Source: a phage
Length of the DNA stretch: 64,000 bases
Strand: one strand, 5' to 3'
Assembly: GCA_012455605.1 (NCBI GenBank)
Contig: GCA_012455605.1_3618.1
The number at the start of each line of letters is the position of its first letter. Position 1 is the stretch's first letter. The notes under the pieces are model-generated. The model did not search any database. It was not told the origin of the DNA and saw only the letters and a list, made by a program, of their open reading frames with translations. Shown here one piece after another: positions 5,057 through 15,232 of the stretch. The position numbers and the translations under genes were made by a program.

Positions 5057-5368
5057 CTATACCCACGAGGGCTTATCAAGGTTGGAGTAGCTGAAAGGTG
5101 TCAAAAGGTGACTGTCAAAATCTCTCAAACTATCCAGATCTTTTTCCTCGTCCTGACACCATCTGTGCCTACATTTATTGTTGTAGTGCATAGAATGCAT
5201 AGCGTTCTGCAACTTAACAGGCACAAGTGATTCGGGAGTAGATAGTATTGTTGGGTATGCCAGAACCACTTCAAACAGTGGAAACACATCGAAACTAAAG
5301 TCTACCTCTGCAGAGGTTGATGGCATGTAGGAGTATTTAGCCGCCTTTGTAGACATAATCCACCTCAC
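5057..5368 (-). CDS. hypothetical protein (103 aa)
   Basis: ORF, overlaps upstream stop by 4 nt. Confidence 0.35.
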   Translation of the reverse strand: MRWIMSTKAAKYSYMPSTSAEVDFSFDVFPLFEVVLAYPTILSTPESLVPVKLQNAMHSMHYNNKCRHRWCQDEEKDLDSLRDFDSHLLTPFSYSNLDKPSWV

Positions 5369-6840: not shown

Positions 6841-7128
6841 TCATAGTGCCTCTAAGATTTCATACCCTTCGGGTCGGAATACAAGCCACTCCGTGGCTCC
6901 GTTTGGTCGATATGCTTTATACAAAACAACCTGATCTCGGCACATGCACATAGCTACATAGTTTTCATCCACACCTGCAGCCTGCATTGCATCTTCTTCT
7001 CCGGCAACTGCTTTGCTTACAACCTCCTTGGTAGGCAGGTGTGCGATCAGCTCGTCACCATCATTAATTCCAAAATGGCTGAGTTCTCCATTGGTATCTT
7101 TAATCTTAATCTTAACCAGATCTTTCAT
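6841..7128 (-). CDS. hypothetical protein (95 aa)
   Basis: ORF; stop-start overlap with neighbour. Confidence 0.45.
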   Translation of the reverse strand: MKDLVKIKIKDTNGELSHFGINDGDELIAHLPTKEVVSKAVAGEEDAMQAAGVDENYVAMCMCRDQVVLYKAYRPNGATEWLVFRPEGYEILEAL

Positions 7129-7457
7129 TAGTCTTCCTCCAGGTTCAAAGGTCCTAAGATTTCATATGCCAGATTAGAAGTTACCAGAGGGTCTTCTGCG
7201 TCTTTAGTATTATACCACCCGTGAATAACCAGAGTCCCACTTTGTTTCATGTCCAACTGGAACTCTTCTGCCGTTTCCTCATCCAGCTCCAAGATTTCCA
7301 TAAGGTATTTGATGTTAGGGAGGTATGCAGCTGTTACAGTCCCCTCTACCAGACCTTCAGGCCAACCTACATCTGGATGACAAGTAGGAACCAGGTTGGT
7401 CAGCTTAATGGTGTACGCTTTTTCTGCACGAGCCTTCAGTAACGGGTCAATCTTCAT
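7128..7457 (-). CDS. hypothetical acidic protein (109 aa)
   Basis: ORF; acidic C-terminus. Confidence 0.45.
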   Translation of the reverse strand: MKIDPLLKARAEKAYTIKLTNLVPTCHPDVGWPEGLVEGTVTAAYLPNIKYLMEILELDEETAEEFQLDMKQSGTLVIHGWYNTKDAEDPLVTSNLAYEILGPLNLEED

Positions 7458-7807
7458 TATTCGTCCTCCTCTTCGGTACCTGCTTCCAGTAATAAGTTAA
7501 GAATATCTTCTGCACAAGGTTCATAGAACTCTTGGCCTTCATTATCGATGATTTTGTAGTCATCTCCACGAATAATCAGGGGATCACTCTCAAAATTATC
7601 GAGACCTTTAACAACGACAACACGATCGATTGCCATCATTGTAAGAACTTTATCGACATCTTCCTCTGCTACACCATACTGCAGCAGAATGTCTTTGGTA
7701 GGAGGAACAGCATCCACCACAACGCCGTTACCAAAACCTTCTGGAAGTTTAGCTAAAATATCTTCCGGAACCACATTCACATCAAAACCGGTAATTTCTA
7801 CTTTCAT
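7457..7807 (-). CDS. hypothetical acidic protein (116 aa)
   Basis: ORF; C-terminal EEEDE tail. Confidence 0.45.
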   Translation of the reverse strand: MKVEITGFDVNVVPEDILAKLPEGFGNGVVVDAVPPTKDILLQYGVAEEDVDKVLTMMAIDRVVVVKGLDNFESDPLIIRGDDYKIIDNEGQEFYEPCAEDILNLLLEAGTEEEDE

Positions 7808-8068
7808 TTACAGCACCTCTTCGTCAACTACTTCATAAAAATGGCCTGGGATTGCAATAGCGTTCTCACCTTCACCTACAAACACAGTTCCGTCAAGAAT
7901 CAACATCATAAGAATTTCTGTAATATCCTCTTCCGGAACGTTGCCAAAACCTTTAATCAGCTCGTAGGTTGGAATATTTACCTCTAAGATGTCACCATCT
8001 TTAGAACGGAAATCAACACCGTCCTGAATCTCTGCCGTTTCAAGGTTTTTCAATTTAATCTTCATCAA
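7808..8068 (-). CDS. hypothetical protein (86 aa)
   Basis: ORF with RBS. Confidence 0.45.
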   Translation of the reverse strand: MMKIKLKNLETAEIQDGVDFRSKDGDILEVNIPTYELIKGFGNVPEEDITEILMMLILDGTVFVGEGENAIAIPGHFYEVVDEEVL

Positions 8069-8099
8069 TCGGTCCCCCTGTCTTATTAAGATGAAGGTA

Positions 8100-8128
8100 T
8101 TATTTCACACAGGGTTGGCGTTGTCAAC
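8100..8128 (-). promoter_or_regulatory. sigma70-like promoter (minus strand, TTGACA -35)
   Basis: TTGACA (plus 8123-8128 reverse complement) with a weak AATAAT-like -10; upstream of the 8068 start. Confidence 0.35.
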
Positions 8129-8145
8129 ACCTGTGTGCAAGAAAA

Positions 8146-8541
8146 TTACTGAAACAGTGCGGATAAATTACCTTCTGGTGGGAACTTATCTGCCAAAAAC
8201 GGTGTTAGCACAGTAGCCTTCTGAAGATCTGGGGTCCACTCGTTGTTCAGAACATCCCAGTAGTACGCAATGTTGCTGTGTGGGTGCCGCATTACGAACT
8301 TTTTCCCTTCGTAGTCATCTGAAACCTCTACAGAAGAAATAACAACAGAATCTTCAAGGGTTTCTTCATAGAAAGATCCACCTTCAAATTTCCAACGAGA
8401 TGCAAGAGCCCCTGCCTTGAACGCTGCAGATAACGGACTGTCGGCAAGAACATACATTTCTTGCACTCTGTCGCTGCGATCTTTGCTTCTTACGTTGTAT
8501 ACAGTATCTGAGCTATACTCAACACGGTATAGGCTTACCAT
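8146..8541 (-). CDS. hypothetical protein, paralog family B (131 aa)
   Basis: shares the FVMRHPHS..YYWD...EWTPD...ATVLTP block with the 10353-10751 product. Confidence 0.5.
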   Translation of the reverse strand: MVSLYRVEYSSDTVYNVRSKDRSDRVQEMYVLADSPLSAAFKAGALASRWKFEGGSFYEETLEDSVVISSVEVSDDYEGKKFVMRHPHSNIAYYWDVLNNEWTPDLQKATVLTPFLADKFPPEGNLSALFQ

Positions 8542-8900
8542 TACCGCACCTCCTCAATAACTTCCACATCTGAACCTACCACAAATGCAAAAGGACAGGT
8601 TTCATGAAAGATATCCGGATCGCCGCCAAGCTTGCTAACAATTTCTCCACCACTAATAAACACAAGCTCACCGATATTCATCAGATTGCTGAAATAGTAC
8701 CCATAATGATTAAAGAATGCAGCAGGGTCAGGTAGACTAGTAGCCTCAAGCACTACATCGGTTGAGGTTACTTTCTTATCATAACCTCTCGCCTTTTGAG
8801 ATGCAAGATCTGCAGAATCCTCAGGCGACCGGAGATGCACAGGAATTGTTTCACCAATAAAGCGTACTTTCATATTATCACCCAACAACCATAGCTTCAA
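8541..8900 (-). CDS. hypothetical protein, divergent member of paralog family A
   Basis: C-terminal FISGGEIVSKLGG...VGSDVEVIEE resembles the DLIAAGA...EVVE family. Confidence 0.45.
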   Translation of the reverse strand: MKLWLLGDNMKVRFIGETIPVHLRSPEDSADLASQKARGYDKKVTSTDVVLEATSLPDPAAFFNHYGYYFSNLMNIGELVFISGGEIVSKLGGDPDIFHETCPFAFVVGSDVEVIEEVR

Positions 8901-9141
8901 AAGGAGTCATGAACGAATAAACGGCATCATCATCTGCTTCAGGGAATGCTCCCAAAGACTTCATATCCGAGCCCTTGACAAATACAAGGTTTTGATCAAA
9001 GGCTTCTTGGGGGTCAATCCGATACATATTTCGTAAAATATCGCTTACCTCCTCATCAAGAGGTGAGTATGCTGTGCACGTTTTTCCGATCAAGCTTTGA
9101 GAATCAGGGTATCCACCTGAAGTTTTAAAATAAACAATCAT
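8878..9141 (-). CDS. hypothetical protein (87 aa)
   Basis: ORF. Confidence 0.4.
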   Translation of the reverse strand: MIVYFKTSGGYPDSQSLIGKTCTAYSPLDEEVSDILRNMYRIDPQEAFDQNLVFVKGSDMKSLGAFPEADDDAVYSFMTPFEAMVVG

Positions 9142-9232
9142 ATAGTATCACCTCTGGTAAGAGATTGGGACTCCTTTCCCACAAATAATTACAAATCTTC
9201 CTTAGCGAGGAAGTATGCTAATCCAAGCAGGA

Positions 9233-9502
9233 TTATTCCTCTACAATCTCATACACATCGGGAGTTACAATCAACTCTTCTCCGTTACCCGGTGCAACAA
9301 ACACCACCAAACCTTCAGGTGTGTGCTTTTTAGCCATCTCGATAACATCTTCTCGCAGAGCTGGCTCCATCAGATCAAAACCTTCACCTAGGGCATCACG
9401 AACCACCTTCATATAGTCCACTGGTTGTGCTTCAACAATCATGCCTTCAACCAGTCCACAATTTTTGTCTGCCAGCTCAGTTTGGAATAATTTAATTTTC
9501 AT
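9233..9502 (-). CDS. hypothetical acidic protein (89 aa)
   Basis: ORF. Confidence 0.45.
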   Translation of the reverse strand: MKIKLFQTELADKNCGLVEGMIVEAQPVDYMKVVRDALGEGFDLMEPALREDVIEMAKKHTPEGLVVFVAPGNGEELIVTPDVYEIVEE

Positions 9503-9639
9503 TTAGAGGTCTCCTCAATTATTTGATATTAATAGCCGTAACCTAACACATTAACTACAACTGCGATTGCAAACATAATTTCAAAGCATGCAATCTCTAC
9601 ATTTGGGACTAATTTCTTAATCACACCCATTGTAGCACC

Positions 9640-9960
9640 TCATTCTCCAAAGTCAATCTTTACTTTGCCTTTCCCCTTACCTTTCTTTCCACCGCATTTA
9701 GCCAGCTGACGTGCTGCAACATCTACCATACGGTCAGTTGCCTCGTAAGCATCACTGCCTTTAGCCTTGGCAATAACTTCTTTTCCAGAATTGTCAAAAA
9801 TGAACGCCATAACTTCCTGGTGATCATTTTCAACTTTTACACTCACACGTGCATAGTTAACAGAGGGATGTAAACGCTCCAGCTTGGACATTTTGCGGGA
9901 AATAAAAGATACCATACCTTCTGTGATTTCTACATTGTTGCCAGTGATTTCAATTTGCAT
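9640..9960 (-). CDS. hpf: ribosome hibernation promoting factor / RaiA-family protein
   Basis: N-terminus MQIEITGNNVEITEGM and central SDAYEA...ARQL match the HPF/YfiA family as recalled from E. coli HPF (MQLNITGNNVEITEAL); basic Lys-Gly tail. Confidence 0.75.
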   Translation of the reverse strand: MQIEITGNNVEITEGMVSFISRKMSKLERLHPSVNYARVSVKVENDHQEVMAFIFDNSGKEVIAKAKGSDAYEATDRMVDVAARQLAKCGGKKGKGKGKVKIDFGE

Positions 9961-10009
9961 AACGTGTTCCTTTTAAGGAAGAGGGAATAACTATCTCTCT
10001 TTGAAAACA

Positions 10010-10038
10010 ATGATACTAAATCTGAAGCGTTGTGTCAA
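10010..10038 (-). promoter_or_regulatory. sigma70-like promoter (minus strand, TTGACA-17-TATCAT)
   Basis: reverse complement of plus 10033-10038 is TTGACA and of 10010-10015 is TATCAT; directly upstream of hpf. Confidence 0.5.
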
Positions 10039-10044
10039 CAGTTT

Positions 10045-10335
10045 TTACAGCTTGTTGTCGATAGTTTTTAAAATATCCACAGCAAGATCTGCCATTTTTC
10101 GAACATACTCTGCAAACTCAACAGGATCCTTGATCAAAGAATTCACAGGGTCGTACCCTAGAGCGTTTAAAATGGCTGCAGCATCTACAACCTTCTCATC
10201 ATTTGCGAAGATCTCTCCGTCAAACTTGTAGGTCCATTTTGAGTCAACCTTAGCAGAGCAGGGTTTGTCCATGCTTGTTACACCATCGTCTTTAAACTCT
10301 CCTGCGTTATCAATATTTAGAATTAAATCCATCAT
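10045..10335 (-). CDS. hypothetical protein (96 aa)
   Basis: ORF. Confidence 0.45.
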   Translation of the reverse strand: MMDLILNIDNAGEFKDDGVTSMDKPCSAKVDSKWTYKFDGEIFANDEKVVDAAAILNALGYDPVNSLIKDPVEFAEYVRKMADLAVDILKTIDNKL

Positions 10336-10352
10336 GGTGACACCTCACTGTT

Positions 10353-10751
10353 TCAGTTTAGCTTTTCTTCAACAACCCCATAACTTGGGGCAGAGTCAAG
10401 AGCTTTCTGGTTTAAAAGTGGCGTAGCAGAATCTGCAAACGGTGTCCAAGTTTTTGTTCTGGCATTCCAGTAATGCTTCACTCTGGAGTCTGGATGCACT
10501 ATAACAAAAACTTTTTCACTTGTCAACACATTAATTTCTTCTACACCCTTGCTGATAATTTCTCCGTCATAGCCCCCAGTCTGGTATCCTTCGTACCAGG
10601 TTCTTGCATAGGCATAGCCAGCCTGCCAGCATGCAGCCTCCTCCGAGGTGGAGACTACGTAGAAGTCTTTCTCAAATTCTGGAATACGCCCTTGCTTTAC
10701 GCTCCAAGCCCCGCGAATTTTCATTGTAACTTTAAACAGTTTATTTTTCAC
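10353..10751 (-). CDS. hypothetical protein, paralog family B (132 aa)
   Basis: FVIVHPDSRVKHYWN...TWTPF..ATPL block shared with 8146-8541. Confidence 0.5.
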   Translation of the reverse strand: MKNKLFKVTMKIRGAWSVKQGRIPEFEKDFYVVSTSEEAACWQAGYAYARTWYEGYQTGGYDGEIISKGVEEINVLTSEKVFVIVHPDSRVKHYWNARTKTWTPFADSATPLLNQKALDSAPSYGVVEEKLN

Positions 10752-10763
10752 AACGGTTACCCA

Positions 10764-11018
10764 TCACAGCTCTACAATATCTGCATCTGACCCTACCCCA
10801 AAGGCATAGTAGGACTCTTCCCCGAAATAATATTCAGGTGCACCAGCGGTGATCAGGTCTGATCCCAAGATAAACACCACGTTGTGGCCTACATAACTGT
10901 GATGTTGCCGCACAGGATCATCCCACGGCAACCCTTCAAAGTATACCGCAGGAACGACCTTTCCATTCAGGAAGGATTGTCCCAAGTAGACGTTAGAATC
11001 AAGAATTTTAACCTTCAT
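10764..11018 (-). CDS. hypothetical protein, paralog family A (84 aa)
   Basis: MKVKILD...GSDLITAGA...SDADIVEL pattern shared with 11008-11235 and 14561-14794. Confidence 0.5.
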   Translation of the reverse strand: MKVKILDSNVYLGQSFLNGKVVPAVYFEGLPWDDPVRQHHSYVGHNVVFILGSDLITAGAPEYYFGEESYYAFGVGSDADIVEL

Positions 11019-11235
11019 GATCGTCCTCCACTACCTCTACATCCTCACCTAGGGCAAAGTTATAGGTCCACTGACTGTCAAAGCATTCCTGAGATGCACC
11101 AGCGGCAATAAGATCTGCTCCTTTTATTTTTAAAAGGTCAGGGTAATCTTCGTTAGGGACAGCAGTAAACACTTTTCCTACTAAAGGCTCCTGACCAATA
11201 TAGAAGCTTGAATCTAAAACTTTAACTTTCATCAA
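11008..11235 (-). CDS. hypothetical protein, paralog family A (75 aa)
   Basis: MMKVKVLD...KGADLIAAGA...EDVEVVEDD. Confidence 0.5.
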   Translation of the reverse strand: MMKVKVLDSSFYIGQEPLVGKVFTAVPNEDYPDLLKIKGADLIAAGASQECFDSQWTYNFALGEDVEVVEDDHEG

Positions 11236-11519
11236 CGGTCTCCATCAGGTGGTTGTGGGACGTAAACACTGTTACGAATATCGTCAGCAGTGTAGTAATA
11301 AGTGGTTCCAACCCTGTCTCGGGCTGCAATGTACTCTGCTATACCAATAAGTGCCATTGATTTGGTGGCGTATCTTCCCAACTCGTTAGCTCCCCAGTAG
11401 AATTTAGACCAGTAGGGAATAAGACCGAACAAATATACCTTTTGACGAACTTCCCAGTAAGTGCCTTTTCCGACAAGTTTAAACTCTACTTCACTACTGT
11501 TAATCTTTTTCATTATCAA
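11232..11519 (-). CDS. hypothetical protein (95 aa)
   Basis: ORF with 4 nt overlap. Confidence 0.4.
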   Translation of the reverse strand: MIMKKINSSEVEFKLVGKGTYWEVRQKVYLFGLIPYWSKFYWGANELGRYATKSMALIGIAEYIAARDRVGTTYYYTADDIRNSVYVPQPPDGDR

Positions 11520-11812
11520 TCTCCCTCTACCGTGGTCGGATTGTCAGTAAGAAATTGAGCATTGGCTGGAGGCACGCCTGACATTTTCCACACAACCATA
11601 AGTTTGTAACCAGGCACTCTATTAAGTGCAGATCGAGTAGAGTTTGTGCACGTATACTTTCGCTTTCCAAACCCGTTCTCCATCATAATCCAGTACCCAG
11701 TATCTTTGTCACCAGGTATCGGTAGACCACCTTCATCAACCCACTGAATGGACCACGGCACGATGGCTACAGCTTTATATTTAAACTTTTTAAACCACTC
11801 AAAAAGTTTCAT
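11516..11812 (-). CDS. hypothetical protein (98 aa)
   Basis: ORF. Confidence 0.4.
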   Translation of the reverse strand: MKLFEWFKKFKYKAVAIVPWSIQWVDEGGLPIPGDKDTGYWIMMENGFGKRKYTCTNSTRSALNRVPGYKLMVVWKMSGVPPANAQFLTDNPTTVEGD

Positions 11813-11997
11813 AATTCAGCCTCGCTTGGCAACTCTTCTACCTTAACATGCCGAAAAGTGTTACCGTAATGGTTGATCCATGACATCAGCTCGCTTTCTT
11901 GCTCTTCCTCTGGGATGAACTCTCGAATGCTGACAAGTTTTAAGAAAACCCAATCACAATCTGCACCCATTCTACCAGACAGGCAATAGTGCTTCAT
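11809..11997 (-). CDS. hypothetical protein (62 aa)
   Basis: ORF. Confidence 0.35.
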   Translation of the reverse strand: MKHYCLSGRMGADCDWVFLKLVSIREFIPEEEQESELMSWINHYGNTFRHVKVEELPSEAEL

Positions 11998-12015
11998 AAA
12001 ACCCTCCTGCCTGGT

Positions 12016-12210
12016 TTAGAATATTGCTTCTTCCATTGCGCCTGAGAGCAACAAAGAGGTGATCTGGCTAACATTCATCTCAGACTCTACTTCCTCCCCT
12101 TTGAAAGGTTCGCGGCAGAATAGGACTGTTTCAGGACTTTTACTTCGAACAATATAATACAAATCATTCAATGTGTTGTAGTAATAAGTGTTAAAACGTA
12201 AGTTTTTCAT
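12016..12210 (-). CDS. hypothetical protein (64 aa)
   Basis: ORF. Confidence 0.35.
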   Translation of the reverse strand: MKNLRFNTYYYNTLNDLYYIVRSKSPETVLFCREPFKGEEVESEMNVSQITSLLLSGAMEEAIF

Positions 12211-12494
12211 TTTCTAGTCCTCTTCTTAGATTTTTGGGGAGAAACGCTTTCTGCAATACGAGACAGACGTTCTTCTGAAGCCTTACCTACTCCAGGTTTT
12301 TTAAGTGGATTATCTTTATGACCACAATCCAACTGGATATTGGATACCTCTCCAACTTTGTAAGTCAATTCTAGTAAAAGGTTGTCGTCCTTGTCAAATG
12401 TTTTTACGATAAATTTTTTATCGTTCTCCTGAACTTCATATCTGGTACCTGCAGTATACAGCATGGTGCCATCAGCATAGGATATCCAGATCAT
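12207..12494 (-). CDS. hypothetical protein (95 aa, basic C-terminus)
   Basis: ORF. Confidence 0.4.
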   Translation of the reverse strand: MIWISYADGTMLYTAGTRYEVQENDKKFIVKTFDKDDNLLLELTYKVGEVSNIQLDCGHKDNPLKKPGVGKASEERLSRIAESVSPQKSKKRTRK

Positions 12495-12838
12495 TGAGCC
12501 TCCTTTTGCTGCAACAGCATTAACTCTTTGTTAGAGATCTTTACTGCTGTTTTTATTGTTCCATCTTCACGAAACCACGACCAGAACTCTACAGTGTCAC
12601 CACTATCAAGTAAAGCATGCCCATGGTAAAAATCTTTGTCCTTAGACAGTTTCTCATCTATATCTGCATCAACACATTCGTGATCCATAGCATTTTGCCT
12701 GAACGCATCGGTTATGCCAATGCACGCCTTGCTCTCAAGACTGGTATATCCGATATCTTTTAATTCAGTTTCCCAAGTCCAGTACCCTATAAAAGCTAAA
12801 ACAGCTACCCACAGTAATAACGTTTTAATCTTTGGCAT
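12491..12838 (-). CDS. hypothetical membrane-anchored or secreted protein (115 aa)
   Basis: N-terminal hydrophobic segment LLLWVAVLAFIGYW. Confidence 0.4.
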   Translation of the reverse strand: MPKIKTLLLWVAVLAFIGYWTWETELKDIGYTSLESKACIGITDAFRQNAMDHECVDADIDEKLSKDKDFYHGHALLDSGDTVEFWSWFREDGTIKTAVKISNKELMLLQQKEAQ

Positions 12839-12900
12839 TCTCTCTACCTCTCTCTTAGTTTATTTCACTATGGCACATCCTTTGTGCCATATCTCAACTA

Positions 12901-13371
12901 CTACTTAAATAGTAGTTCAAAATAGTGCAAAATTAACAGAAGTTGAACTACACCTAGTGCAACGGCGAGTATGTTAATCTTAGAATCGAAAAACTTCTTA
13001 ACTTTTACTCTAAAAGGTTCCTTAATGTCCTTTACGATCCTATCTATAGATGACCTCATATCTCTGATTACCATCCTGAACATTAAAGACGGATGCTCCC
13101 CCATCTCTGTAACGGAATCGAAAACATACTCTCTTCGGTCATAAGGGCCGCCAGCTCTGCGTATTAACCTCTCCACAGAGACCTCGAACGTCACACCTGT
13201 AACGTAATCATCTATAACAAGTCGTGACGGGTCTTTACCTTTACTATCAAGAGGTATCAAAGTTATCTTTCCAGATTTTGTTAAAATTTCCCCTTTTTCA
13301 AGCAAGGTGTACCAATGCTCTCTGCCAAGACTGTTGAGGCACGTTTTTACATATTTAACAAACATCGTCAC
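12901..13371 (-). CDS. hypothetical protein with C-terminal TM anchor (156 aa)
   Basis: C-terminal ILAVALGVVQLLLILHYF. Confidence 0.4.
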   Translation of the reverse strand: MTMFVKYVKTCLNSLGREHWYTLLEKGEILTKSGKITLIPLDSKGKDPSRLVIDDYVTGVTFEVSVERLIRRAGGPYDRREYVFDSVTEMGEHPSLMFRMVIRDMRSSIDRIVKDIKEPFRVKVKKFFDSKINILAVALGVVQLLLILHYFELLFK

Positions 13372-13571
13372 CCCTCATCGCACGTCTGATATAACCACTC
13401 TATAAAATCTTGATACCATTCGCCCTCTGAGCGCTCCGTAGGCCAATAATCTTCACCCTCTCGTGCATTAAAATCTGAGTATTCAACTTTCCACTCCTTT
13501 ACCAGCTCGTGGAGAAGGTTTTCAGCCTGCTCTAAAGATTTATTTTTTACCATTGCTGTCTCCTTTTTCAA
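13368..13571 (-). CDS. hypothetical protein (67 aa)
   Basis: ORF. Confidence 0.4.
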   Translation of the reverse strand: MKKETAMVKNKSLEQAENLLHELVKEWKVEYSDFNAREGEDYWPTERSEGEWYQDFIEWLYQTCDEG

Positions 13572-13772
13572 GATAGTTATACATCAGAACTGCACCACCT
13601 AAGATGGCTACCAGTAACAATATCCCAGATAGCATCTCAATAAACATGGCTTGAAACACTGGAAGGTCTCCCTAAATTAACGCACCATTTTAAATACATG
13701 CTCTTTTCCCATAAAGGTGCCTGGCTAAGATCTGCGTAGAACGCAATCTCTTTAAGAACAGTATAGATAGTT

Positions 13773-14000
13773 TTAGGTGCGGTCTCCATCCCTACTCTCC
13801 TTCCTGATATTCTTGTAGTAATCAACTAGGCACATTATTACGATGAAGATAACAACAGGCCAAAAAGGTGCAGCAGTGATGATGGTGATAAAATCATCAA
13901 ACTTCACCCTTCGTCTGGACACGATGCATACACCTGTCAAGAATACCGCTGTTATAACGGATATTACCAGGTAACCTATTAACACAACATTTATACTCAT
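13773..14000 (-). CDS. hypothetical small membrane protein (75 aa, two predicted TM segments); possible holin-like
   Basis: two hydrophobic stretches and a charged C-terminus; holin assignment is speculative. Confidence 0.35.
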   Translation of the reverse strand: MSINVVLIGYLVISVITAVFLTGVCIVSRRRVKFDDFITIITAAPFWPVVIFIVIMCLVDYYKNIRKESRDGDRT

Positions 14001-14030
14001 TAGCCTTCCCTTTATAGGTTAAATTGTATA

Positions 14031-14564
14031 CTACAGATGGTTGCTTATGGTGTCAAGAAAAGTATCCCGTTCTTTCTTGGAGTTTTCACAGGTGTAGCTG
14101 AAAAACATATCTAGAATAACCTTATTGATATATTCCAGCTCCTCCGTGTTCAGGTACTTAGCAGGATCTACAATGACATCCCAAGTCTCATACAGACCGC
14201 ACTCATGATACCCCCAACGCTGCTCAATTGTCAAGCTGAGCGGCAAATCTTTACCGTCACAAACAACCTTCCATCTACAAATGCTGGTATCTGGGCGCAA
14301 CTGTGTACGGTATACCTGTACAAAATCCAATCTGAATTTGAGGTACTCGTCATACAATTTAAGCACAAAGCTCTCAATTTGTGGAGACACTTTTGCAGCA
14401 AACTGTGCGTATTTATACTTGCACTGGATGATCTTTCTGCGTTTCGCAGTTAAATTTTTTGCAGCCAGTTGTTCTTCAGTATATCTCCATCTACGATCAA
14501 CAAACGCAACAGGGTCTTTGTCCCCATAGAGGTCTTCCCAGTTAATAAGAAGCATACCTGTCAC
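14031..14564 (-). CDS. hypothetical protein (177 aa)
   Basis: ORF. Confidence 0.45.
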   Translation of the reverse strand: MTGMLLINWEDLYGDKDPVAFVDRRWRYTEEQLAAKNLTAKRRKIIQCKYKYAQFAAKVSPQIESFVLKLYDEYLKFRLDFVQVYRTQLRPDTSICRWKVVCDGKDLPLSLTIEQRWGYHECGLYETWDVIVDPAKYLNTEELEYINKVILDMFFSYTCENSKKERDTFLDTISNHL

Positions 14565-14794
14565 TCCTCCACAACTTCAAGGCCTTTGCCGCCTCGTTCT
14601 GGTAGATTACTTAAAGATAGGTAATATGTATAGTCAGGAGAGATCCTGCCAGACTCTGCACCTGCAGCTAATAAATCTTTTCCCTTAACCATGACAACAT
14701 TATCGTTTGCAGATAGCCGTTTTGCTTCCACAATTTTACCAATGCAGTCAACCAAAGAAGGGTACCCTAAATCTGTAAGAAATTTAACTTTCAT
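14561..14794 (-). CDS. hypothetical protein, paralog family A (77 aa)
   Basis: MKVKFLTD...KGKDLLAAGA...LEVVEE. Confidence 0.5.
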   Translation of the reverse strand: MKVKFLTDLGYPSLVDCIGKIVEAKRLSANDNVVMVKGKDLLAAGAESGRISPDYTYYLSLSNLPERGGKGLEVVEE

Positions 14795-14833
14795 GCTACC
14801 TCCTACTTCTACCGTCCCTGGTAAGATAAATTA

Positions 14834-15232
14834 TTACTGAACAGAGCGCGGAGCCGGGAAGGATAACTCTTCTAAAGAGAAGATTTCATTTCCCACAATC
14901 CATGTTGCCGGATCATCCGGGTTGACTGGATAGATAATCATCACCTCGTCCGTGCTACATACCCGCTTTTTACCTGTAGAGTTATCAGCAACTAGCATAC
15001 GAGGCTCTTCAGAGATACACAGGTATCCGCCACGTCCAACTGTCCCTTCTACAGGGTCCTGGCCTTTTATTACGATGATTATCTTCTCTCCTGAGACGAT
15101 ATTACCTTGCACACTAACAGTTTGACCAACTTTAGATGTGCCGAACTTGGTGGTTTCAAACATTAAATCTCGAATTACTGTTGCATAGTCTCCAGACACT
15201 TTCTTACCTTCTTTAGTGATCTCAATCTTCAT
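14834..15232 (-). CDS. hypothetical protein (132 aa)
   Basis: ORF. Confidence 0.45.
   Translation of the reverse strand: MKIEITKEGKKVSGDYATVIRDLMFETTKFGTSKVGQTVSVQGNIVSGEKIIIVIKGQDPVEGTVGRGGYLCISEEPRMLVADNSTGKKRVCSTDEVMIIYPVNPDDPATWIVGNEIFSLEELSFPAPRSVQ

Follow-up and report, generated by a model that had tools for sequence, protein, structure and literature searches.

Two diverged A-A-B gene triplets in a Vequintavirus accessory block, and the requirement for one of them in a near-identical phage on a uropathogenic Escherichia coli isolate

Introduction

Several phage counter-defence genes are known from their conditional essentiality, including bas54_0140 and bas54_0063 of phage Bas54, which are needed against the predicted defence system DS-28, as well as T4 dmd, rIIA/B and acb1 (bioRxiv 10.1101/2025.11.20.689424). 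Repeated copies of small accessory genes are known from gene-amplification accordions such as the T4 tifA/dmd locus (eLife 2022;11:e79549). Here we compare with these systems a locus at positions 8146-14794 of a 64,000-nucleotide (nt) stretch of phage DNA (GenBank assembly GCA_012455605.1, contig GCA_012455605.1_3618.1), the whole of which is referred to as the window. The region consists of two anciently diverged copies of a three-gene cassette, each encoding two small proteins of family A followed by one of family B (A-A-B), and a solitary A gene, A3, in a paralog-rich accessory block of Vequintavirus. In the near-identical phage Bas54, A5, A4 and B1 of cassette 1 are each indispensable on the clinical E. 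coli isolate CFE311, B2 of cassette 2 contributes, and A1, A2 and A3 do not. Vequintaviruses have a broad host range and are candidates for therapeutic use; the majority of their ~230 genes lack an assigned function.

Gene content and paralogy of the locus

An earlier note on this DNA, made from the sequence alone, had described a tandemly duplicated two-gene cassette of small proteins. All six of its open reading frames (ORFs) are present where it had placed them, on the minus strand, and its two recurring families proved to be true paralogs in pairwise, profile, shuffle and profile-profile tests. Its list of family A members also holds, although a fifth member, at 8878-9141, had been overlooked; with this gene, both cassettes therefore read A-A-B. 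Thus, the reported A-then-B order does recur, but the full layout comprises three genes both times rather than two. Nor are the cassettes in tandem: they are 1.2 kb apart, with four other genes between them (10045-10335, a hibernation factor at 9640-9960, a 33-codon ORF, and 9233-9502). The seven genes are listed below by window coordinates, with length in amino acids (aa), isoelectric point (pI) and Bas54 ortholog.

14561-14794, minus strand: A3, solitary family A gene upstream of both cassettes; 77 aa, pI 5.4; bas54_0166
11008-11232, minus strand: A2, family A, first gene of cassette 2; 74 aa, pI 4.1; bas54_0159
10764-11018, minus strand: A1, family A, second gene of cassette 2, overlapping A2 by 11 nt; 84 aa, pI 4.5; bas54_0158
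10353-10751, minus strand: B2, family B, third gene of cassette 2, GTG start; 132 aa, pI 7.8; bas54_0157
8878-9141, minus strand: A5, family A, first gene of cassette 1; 87 aa, pI 4.1; bas54_0152
8541-8873, minus strand: A4, divergent family A, second gene of cassette 1; 110 aa, pI 4.7; bas54_0151
8146-8541, minus strand: B1, family B, third gene of cassette 1; 131 aa, pI 4.7; bas54_0150

In transcription order, cassette 2 is A2-A1-B2 (11232 to 10353) and cassette 1 is A5-A4-B1 (9141 to 8146). The A2 start (11232) shares 1 nt with the stop of the gene before it. The divergent A copy that the earlier note had drawn as 8541-8900 belongs to the family by profile, but its annotated start is the ATG at 8873 (110 aa); read from there, the protein begins with MKVRF, fitting the family A N-terminus. 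The N-terminal L-F/Y-K/R-V of B2 is also kept in B1 and in P0013, a diverged family B relative, and this conservation supports the long form of B2.

The pairwise check proposed in the earlier note was carried out as an all-against-all phmmer search among all 387 ORFs of 45 aa or more that the six frames of the whole window contain, and three pairs were similar well above chance: 11008-11235 (A2) and 10764-11018 (A1) with an E value of 1.4e-11, 14561-14794 (A3) and A2 with 1e-5, and 8146-8541 (B1) and 10353-10751 (B2) with 1e-9. A4 was borderline (7e-4 against A1 and 2.4e-3 against A2) and is not secure on pairwise similarity alone, because two clearly unrelated ORF pairs reached ~3e-3 in the same search. 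When a hidden Markov model of A1-A3 was run against the 387 ORFs, only two others scored with E<1, namely 8878-9141 (A5; 1e-6) and 8541-8900 (A4; 5.8e-5), and none of 2000 composition-preserving shuffles reached the real score of either protein (0/2000 each; 23.4 bits versus a shuffle maximum of 8.4 for A5, and 18.2 versus 9.9 for A4).

Among PHROG families, the 74-position profile phrog_5009 matches A1 (3.7e-32), A2 (1.7e-38) and A3 (6.3e-36), and weakly A5 (1.2e-4), the own family of which is phrog_13920; A4 has no phrog_5009 match and has its own family, phrog_13661. The assignment of A4 and A5 to family A hence comes from our own profiles only and not from PHROG. B1 and B2 match the 131-position profile phrog_7379, of function category 'unknown', over its full length (2.1e-66 and 4.3e-74, respectively). 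For profile-profile comparison with hhalign, ortholog profiles combined sequences of the window with those of three diverged relatives, and ten families of small genes nearby served as negative controls. Within family A the comparison gave 98.9% for A1-A2, 97.3% for A2-A3, 93.9% for A1-A4, 88.3% for A3-A5, 86.6% for A1-A5, 79.6% for A2-A4 and 73.4% for A2-A5, with 4% for A4-A5 directly; B1-B2 reached 98.6%. The control families stayed at or below 36%, most of them below 5%.

All seven genes are under clear purifying selection. Compared with L003, a relative 83-96% identical, the ratio of nonsynonymous to synonymous substitution rates (dN/dS) is 0.05-0.14 for A genes and 0.036-0.039 for B genes (0.14 for A1, 0.05 for A2, 0.064 for A4, 0.039 for B1 and 0.036 for B2). 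A ribosome-binding site of the GGAG/GAGG type precedes each of the seven starts, and all seven have been annotated as coding sequences by other groups. The A5-A4 gap is 4 nt, and the A4 stop and the B1 ATG form TAATG (1-nt overlap), with a GAGGAGG ribosome-binding site for B1 inside A4.

Requirement on a clinical isolate

Bas54 was included in a 2025 preprint on transposon-insertion sequencing in phages (HIDEN-SEQ; bioRxiv 10.1101/2025.11.20.689424). It is phage MaxBurger (MZ501093), and the seven window proteins are 95-100% identical to their Bas54 counterparts (six of seven, 99-100%). The following values, for K-12 BW25113 versus the uropathogenic isolate CFE311, were taken from the supplementary tables of the preprint and mapped by sequence; log2FC is the log2 fold change on CFE311, the from-to values are mean insertion counts, and TA sites are given as hit/total.

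A5 (bas54_0152), 87/87 residues identical: K-12, 10/14 TA sites, intermediate; CFE311, log2FC -7.16, from 142.2 to 0.0, adjusted p 0
A4 (bas54_0151), 110/110 identical: K-12, 16/22 TA sites, intermediate; CFE311, log2FC -6.17, from 71.0 to 0.0, adjusted p 0
B1 (bas54_0150), 130/131 identical: K-12, 25/25 TA sites, non-essential; CFE311, log2FC -6.77, from 108.3 to 0.0 at 24 TA sites, adjusted p 0
A2 (bas54_0159), 73/74 identical: K-12, 16/18 TA sites, non-essential; CFE311, log2FC +0.98, not significant
A1 (bas54_0158), 84/84 identical: K-12, 14/15 TA sites, non-essential; CFE311, log2FC -0.30, not significant
B2 (bas54_0157), 123/123 identical: K-12, 18/19 TA sites, non-essential; CFE311, log2FC -2.14, adjusted p 0
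A3 (bas54_0166), 73/77 identical: K-12, 15/17 TA sites, non-essential; CFE311, log2FC +0.72, not significant

The orthologs of A5, A4 and B1 show the strongest depletion among the rows bas54_0080-0186, exceeding that of bas54_0140 (log2FC -5.48), which has been validated as needed to overcome DS-28 of CFE311 (bioRxiv 10.1101/2025.11.20.689424). The bas54_0140 ortholog is encoded at 5057-5368 of the window (minus strand; 98/99 identical), in the same block as cassette 1, from which it is separated by 2.8 kb on the downstream side. The flanking genes bas54_0149 and bas54_0154-0156 are unaffected on CFE311 (bioRxiv 10.1101/2025.11.20.689424). Thus, the A and B genes display two traits of counter-defence or host-range accessory genes, dispensability on K-12 and, with the exception of A1, A2 and A3, a requirement on CFE311 (partial for B2).

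The authors of the preprint observed little polarity overall, with insertions upstream of essential genes usually tolerated, and cautioned that polarity is possible (bioRxiv 10.1101/2025.11.20.689424). A2 and A1 precede B2 in an operon laid out like that of cassette 1, and insertions in these two genes do not cause the defect seen for B2. From this and from the little polarity seen by the authors, we infer that A5 and A4 are required on CFE311 in their own right.

The main text of the preprint never mentions bas54_0150-0152 and contains no knockouts of them; the defence systems designated there as 'selected' for CFE311 are DS-28 and Gao_Tmn (bioRxiv 10.1101/2025.11.20.689424). Genes of rV5-like phages were not part of the accessory-gene screen of Silas et al., and the Aionostat evolution study of Bas54 found changes at the tail-fibre locus and not in this region. 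As a separate observation on the supplement (Extended Data Table 8, Data S6/S7), the sheet resampling_K-12_vs_CFE303 carries the CFE311 command line and header (B54_2_311), so that the data for CFE303 are apparently either absent or duplicated.

Duplication history and recombination

At 25-40% amino acid identity, the paralogs have hardly any similarity left in their DNA. A single repeat still links them at that level, 30 nt long and 80% identical (repeat family D7), with the following two copies.

10836-10865, no strand assigned: copy in A1, encoding G-S-D-L-I-T-A-G-A-P
11092-11121, no strand assigned: partner copy in A2

Recent tandem amplification of the accordion type is ruled out by the 25-40% identity and by the single repeat at 80%, and the duplications are ancient. 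The same repeat is likely the crossover site of hybrid genes found outside the window. The proteins P0006 and P0007 consist of the A2 N-terminus and the A1 C-terminus, switching exactly after the G-S-D-L-I-T-A-G-A-P motif, and two independent contigs of 133 and 79 kb (L017:5001-5213 and L018:5001-5213) each carry one 70-aa A2::A1 hybrid gene in place of the A2-A1 pair. No such hybrid is present in any of the 118 deposited Vequintavirus genomes. A fusion of another kind was observed in P0012, from a 120-kb contig, in which B2 residues 58-108 run into the last 45 residues of the product of 10045-10335; the junction, with a short AD-S/A-A microhomology, indicates a deletion across the boundary between B2 and the next gene.

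Within family A, relatedness differs between the two ends of the proteins. In the N-terminal block, A1 and A2 share 17/29 positions (59%) and the other pairs 4-11 (14-38%). Over the C-terminal block, A1 matches A4 at 14/39 positions and A2 at 15/39, so that it is equally close to both. Together with the A2/A1 recombinants, this pattern is compatible with gene conversion between adjacent paralogs, although the mosaic signature in A1 is suggestive only. Genes in corresponding positions are best or near-best partners for B1-B2, A4-A1 and, in the neighbouring family C, C7808-C9233 (genes at 7808-8065 and 9233-9502), but not for A2-A5, since A1 and A2 are closest to each other. For 29 genes in random order, finding two A genes immediately before each of the B genes has a chance probability of ~2e-4; the calculation assumes independent positions, an assumption that does not hold for tandem duplicates. 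Collectively, the 'cassette duplication and divergence' of the earlier note stands insofar as the paralogs are ancient and diverged, whereas duplication of the triplet as a unit is plausible rather than demonstrable.

Distribution among relatives

By tblastn, A2 and B2 were found only in 118 Vequintavirus records; cassette 1 is complete in 119/119 records of the genus and cassette 2 in 116/119. An exhaustive profile search for family B among 1.84 billion representative proteins yielded two diverged full-length relatives only, the B2-like P0013 and P0014, which is 40% identical to B1, and word-indexed homolog searches returned near-identical proteins only. In one Seunavirus and one Mydovirus, the syntenic 40 kb around the ClpP-like gene contain no member of A, B or C. 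Two bacterial contigs matched in a metagenome scan with P0014 were unrelated and were dropped. Families A and B are thus confined to Vequintavirus and its close metagenomic relatives.

Two diverged relatives differ in which of the genes they carry. L014, a 124-kb contig from an NCBI assembly (40-88% amino acid identity), has the five A genes and B1 arranged as in the window, with an unrelated 96-aa ORF in the B2 slot. L011, a 140-kb IMG/VR contig, has only A3 and B2 of the two families, lacks both A5-A4-B1 and the hibernation factor, and carries two unrelated ORFs in the A2/A1 slot. A3 is the most conserved A protein in these relatives (74% identical in L014 and 67% in L011). The gene orders of L014 and L011 show that the duplications predate both lineages and that the A/B slots behave as exchangeable accessory positions. 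Among isolates, EduardKellenberger (MZ501061) keeps only the last 86 nt of B2 (~98718-98803), fused into a 'putative glycosidase' gene. Separately, a natural deletion in MaxBurger (MZ501093; 102665-102753) removes six genes corresponding to those from 11516 to 13365 in the window.

Predicted folds and database searches

The proteins of family A are 74-110 aa long and acidic (pI 4.1-5.4). Structure prediction, which the earlier note had proposed, was confident for this family and of low confidence for family B. The AlphaFold2 model of A2, from an 11-sequence alignment, has five strands and one short helix (predicted local distance difference test, pLDDT, 91.2; predicted template modelling score, pTM, 0.79), and the conserved G-x-D-L-x-x-A-G-A motif sits on this helix, at the strand-to-helix passage. 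At the level of fold, family A is thus predicted to be a small acidic cytoplasmic SH3-like beta-barrel, five-stranded and partly open. Compared with the minimal barrel, most of what distinguishes A4 and A5 is inserted sequence following the second strand, where the family tolerates variable insertions; in A4, ~35 extra residues separate the conserved core from the N-terminal strands.

Foldseek searches with the A2 model against BFVD, a database of predicted viral structures, returned uncharacterised small proteins from many coliphages. One of these, an 87-aa protein of Shigella phage CM1 (template modelling, TM, score 0.81), is taken to be the A5 ortholog, given its identical length and the 97.7% identity of CM1 in the region; on this reading, the match adds to the evidence that A5 belongs to family A. 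Several matches carry near-consecutive accession numbers, which suggests that other phages have multi-copy families too. Pfam, NCBIfam and PADLOC contain no family matching any of the seven proteins, the specific SH3, KOW and Tudor families in Pfam and NCBIfam do not match family A, and against PDB profiles family A matched no solved chain (best E 0.19).

Family B has the core HP-x-S...YW...W-T-P. The B2 model was unreliable (pLDDT 54.5) and was not used for a fold search. Against PDB profiles, family B matched designed SAKe Kelch-like propellers with a whole-sequence E value of 2.3e-8 and 0 stretches significant alone; a Kelch or beta-propeller assignment was rejected on this ground, and B is a single 131-aa unit without repeat architecture. 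Six long repetitive proteins in the B profile list were likewise dismissed as compositional or repeat artefacts, as numerous unrelated Pfam families match them too, again with 0 significant stretches.

Family C and the genomic setting

A third paralog family, C, borders the cassettes.

6841-7128, 7128-7457, 7457-7807 and 7808-8065, minus strand: four consecutive family C genes directly downstream of cassette 1
9233-9502, minus strand: C9233, fifth family C member, between the two cassettes

The C genes are linked by hhalign at 82-96% (C9233-C7808, 95.1%; C9233-C6841, 93.0%) and encode very acidic proteins (pI 4.05-4.7, net charge down to -21). Their ortholog profiles show no hhalign link to A, B or the ten control families; a joint A and C superfamily, considered because both start with MK[VI]K and end with Y-E-[VI]-V-E-E, was rejected (at most 9%), and the two were kept apart. 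A C gene comes after both A-A-B triplets, immediately past B1 and three genes past B2, and 12 of ~16 genes between 6.8 and 11.2 kb belong to families A, B and C. In Bas54, the C9233 ortholog has a log2FC of -2.78 on CFE311 (p 0.30, not significant), and the other C genes are unaffected there; family C as a whole is not required on K-12 or CFE311 (bioRxiv 10.1101/2025.11.20.689424). In L014, a 98-aa gene (L014:8467-8763; PF27050 Phage_P22_Y8K6; phrog_1273) lies between B1 and the first C gene, another sign of insertion hot spots at cassette boundaries.

By megablast, 122 phage records match bases 8000-15000, and coverage is at least 80% for 115 of them; all are rV5-like members of the genus Vequintavirus, the best being phages navn and Murica (98.7% identical). 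By this similarity, the source genome is a Vequintavirus (rV5-like), a phage of E. coli. A side observation from the same records is that 18 named 'Campylobacter phage' (MG0656xx; host given as Campylobacter jejuni) are, among the best matches listed, up to 98.7% identical to this E. coli rV5-like sequence; these names probably reflect contamination or mislabelling rather than the true host.

The A and B genes lie in a long minus-strand block of negative GC skew, running from ~42 kb down to 5.7 kb, in which DNA-metabolism genes are followed by a run of small genes, every one a 'hypothetical protein' in GenBank and RefSeq. The block also encodes a ribosome-hibernation factor, a ClpP-like protease and PhoH. 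The rV5 genome paper assigned these genes to transcription unit 82-163 and noted sigma-70-like promoters genome-wide; it does not mention paralogs or duplication (PMC3606486). Promoter and terminator consensus scans gave no overall enrichment, and the two matches listed below, after the hibernation-factor gene, serve as landmarks only.

9640-9960, minus strand: ribosome hibernation factor (RaiA/HPF, PF02482), between the two cassettes
9197-9213, minus strand: terminator-like hairpin and T-run in the 92-nt gap directly upstream of cassette 1; consensus match only
8099-8127, minus strand: sigma-70-like promoter, TTGACA, 17 nt and AATAAT with extended -10, at 11/12 consensus positions; match only

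The putative promoter at 8099-8127, just downstream of B1, would mark where cassette 1 ends and the run of family C genes begins; insertions in the Bas54 gene that follows it (bas54_0149) have no effect on CFE311 (bioRxiv 10.1101/2025.11.20.689424). The hibernation factor is conserved in L014 at 64% identity and absent from the L011 lineage, and its Bas54 gene is non-essential on both K-12 and CFE311 (bioRxiv 10.1101/2025.11.20.689424). Next to A3, the gene at 14031-14555 (minus strand), a 'putative glycosidase' in the BASEL genomes, is 49% identical to its L003 counterpart, with neighbours at 83-96%, and is hypervariable.

Discussion

We consider it probable that the locus is a host-specific module, most likely for counter-defence, with a diverged paralogous copy. 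The host-takeover or anti-defence role suggested in the earlier note is backed by experiment to the extent that the Bas54 orthologs are dispensable on K-12 and that, on CFE311, insertions in A5, A4 and B1 are lost and those in B2 are depleted four-fold. Under the model that we favour, A5, A4 and B1 would act together, in one complex or pathway, against a strain-specific intracellular barrier, most probably an anti-phage defence system of CFE311. The SH3-like barrels of family A would probably be binding or adaptor subunits and B the partner carrying the activity, and cassette 2 and A3 are probably diverged specificities kept for barriers of other hosts. Homologous recombination between the paralogs, together with the replacement of genes in given genomic slots, has probably reshaped copy number and composition. 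The accessory character of the genes is indicated by the absence of the families from the syntenic region of one Seunavirus and one Mydovirus, by the swapped slots in L014 and L011 and by the nearby bas54_0140 ortholog. In its most specific form, A5-A4-B1 would be a three-component counter-defence machine of previously unseen families, two SH3-like adaptors and a genus-specific partner, that disables an immune system of uropathogenic E. coli, with A2-A1-B2 and A3 forming a recombining library of alternative specificities. Recombination among its members, suggested by the A2::A1 hybrids, would retarget the machine, and we put this extended version forward only tentatively.

A number of observations weigh against counter-defence by a cooperating module. 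The requirement comes from one clinical isolate in one comparison. The A5 and A4 insertions may be polar on B1. Selection on the genes, measured gene-wide, is purifying and not diversifying, and the presence of cassette 1 in every member of the genus is more core-like than would be typical of an arms-race gene. A and B genes are not always adjacent in L014 and L011, so partnership is not obligatory for every paralog, and the family B model is unreliable.

With respect to the origin of the layout, a chance similarity between ORFs, or ORFs that are not genes, is practically untenable. The borderline pairwise scores of A4, in the range that unrelated ORF pairs attain, are what could be cited for it; A4 is nonetheless upheld by the profile, shuffle and hhalign tests, and dN/dS, ribosome-binding sites, the confident A2 structure and the insertion phenotypes rule the explanation out for the genes as a set. 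A more serious alternative, which we regard as doubtful yet quite conceivable, is that no cassette was ever duplicated: family A would have expanded by local tandem duplication, and B would have been inserted beside A twice, independently. A1 and A2 are indeed nearest relatives (by the N-terminal block and by hhalign), A4 and A5 have no direct similarity, and the parts vary independently in L014 and L011. Against this, the same order of families, A-A-B and then C, is found at both places, the best profile partners of A4 and C9233 are their positional counterparts A1 and C7808, and adjacency of this kind is improbable by chance. The closeness of A1 and A2 can, moreover, be explained by gene conversion, as the C-terminal block and the A2/A1 hybrids allow.

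As to function, conditional essentiality alone would fit equally well a module that adapts the phage to host physiology by modifying or replacing a housekeeping factor that differs in CFE311, for instance in transcription, translation, proteolysis or envelope stress. In that case it would be a host-takeover module needed in particular strains and not an immune inhibitor. The block shared with a hibernation factor, a ClpP-like protease and PhoH, the universality of cassette 1 in the genus and the strong purifying selection speak for such a role. We nevertheless judge it unlikely, since on K-12 the phage does entirely without these genes, sister genera that have the core machinery in common lack the families, a counter-defence function has been validated for a neighbour within the block and the slots hold unrelated genes in relatives. 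It is also rather improbable that B1 alone matters, with the loss of A5 and A4 insertions being polar on a translationally coupled B1, family A having a separate role and the A-A-B order being a by-product of duplication. Co-orientation of the three genes with a 4-nt gap and a 1-nt overlap, the caution of the preprint authors about polar insertions, and the B2 without an adjacent A in L011 and the A2-A1 without B2 in L014 would agree with it. Conversely, A2 and A1 insertions in the paralogous operon have no B2 phenotype, insertions upstream of essential genes are usually tolerated, and A5, A4 and B1 are kept together in L014 and absent together from L011.

The combination of hidden paralogy, A-A-B layout and transposon-insertion signal offers a handle on how Vequintaviruses infect one clinical E. 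coli strain and points to a barrier there. The requirement for all of cassette 1, compared with the partial requirement for only B2 in cassette 2, provides a natural comparison for the divergence of specificity after duplication.

Comparison with known systems

The fold predicted for family A is superposable on SH3/KOW-like small barrels such as Spt5 KOW, PsaE and eukaryotic SH3, but with 4-23% identity; to our knowledge, a G-x-D-L-x-x-A-G-A helix after strand 3 is not a feature of the SH3, KOW or PsaE families. Barrel proteins of Citrobacter phage Merlin, Cronobacter phage CS01 and Escherichia phage RB49 in BFVD have the same predicted fold (TM 0.7-0.89), with 13-26% identity between the coliphage barrels of that database and family A and none of known function; apart from weak PHROG matches of A3 (phrog_8603 and phrog_13367, ~9e-4), they showed no sequence relation to family A. 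Nor are the A and B proteins related in sequence to any named anti-defence family in Pfam, NCBIfam or PADLOC.

The locus resembles the T4 tifA/dmd accordions in its repeated small accessory genes and in the alteration of copy number by homologous recombination, here through the A2::A1 hybrid, and differs from them in that its copies are ancient, individually under purifying selection and fixed across the genus (eLife 2022;11:e79549). Unlike known counter-defence genes, cassette 1 needs three adjacent genes and has a diverged paralogous copy. Taken by themselves, these are unstudied hypothetical genes of a well-sequenced genus and belong to a familiar kind, accessory paralogs that have diverged and serve a host-specific role. 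The novelty lies in connecting hidden paralogy and operon layout with a very strong, previously unremarked conditional-essentiality signal. In this signal, the genes of cassette 1 are like bas54_0140, which is likewise small, dispensable on K-12, depleted on the clinical isolate in the same experiment and located in the same block of small genes (bioRxiv 10.1101/2025.11.20.689424).

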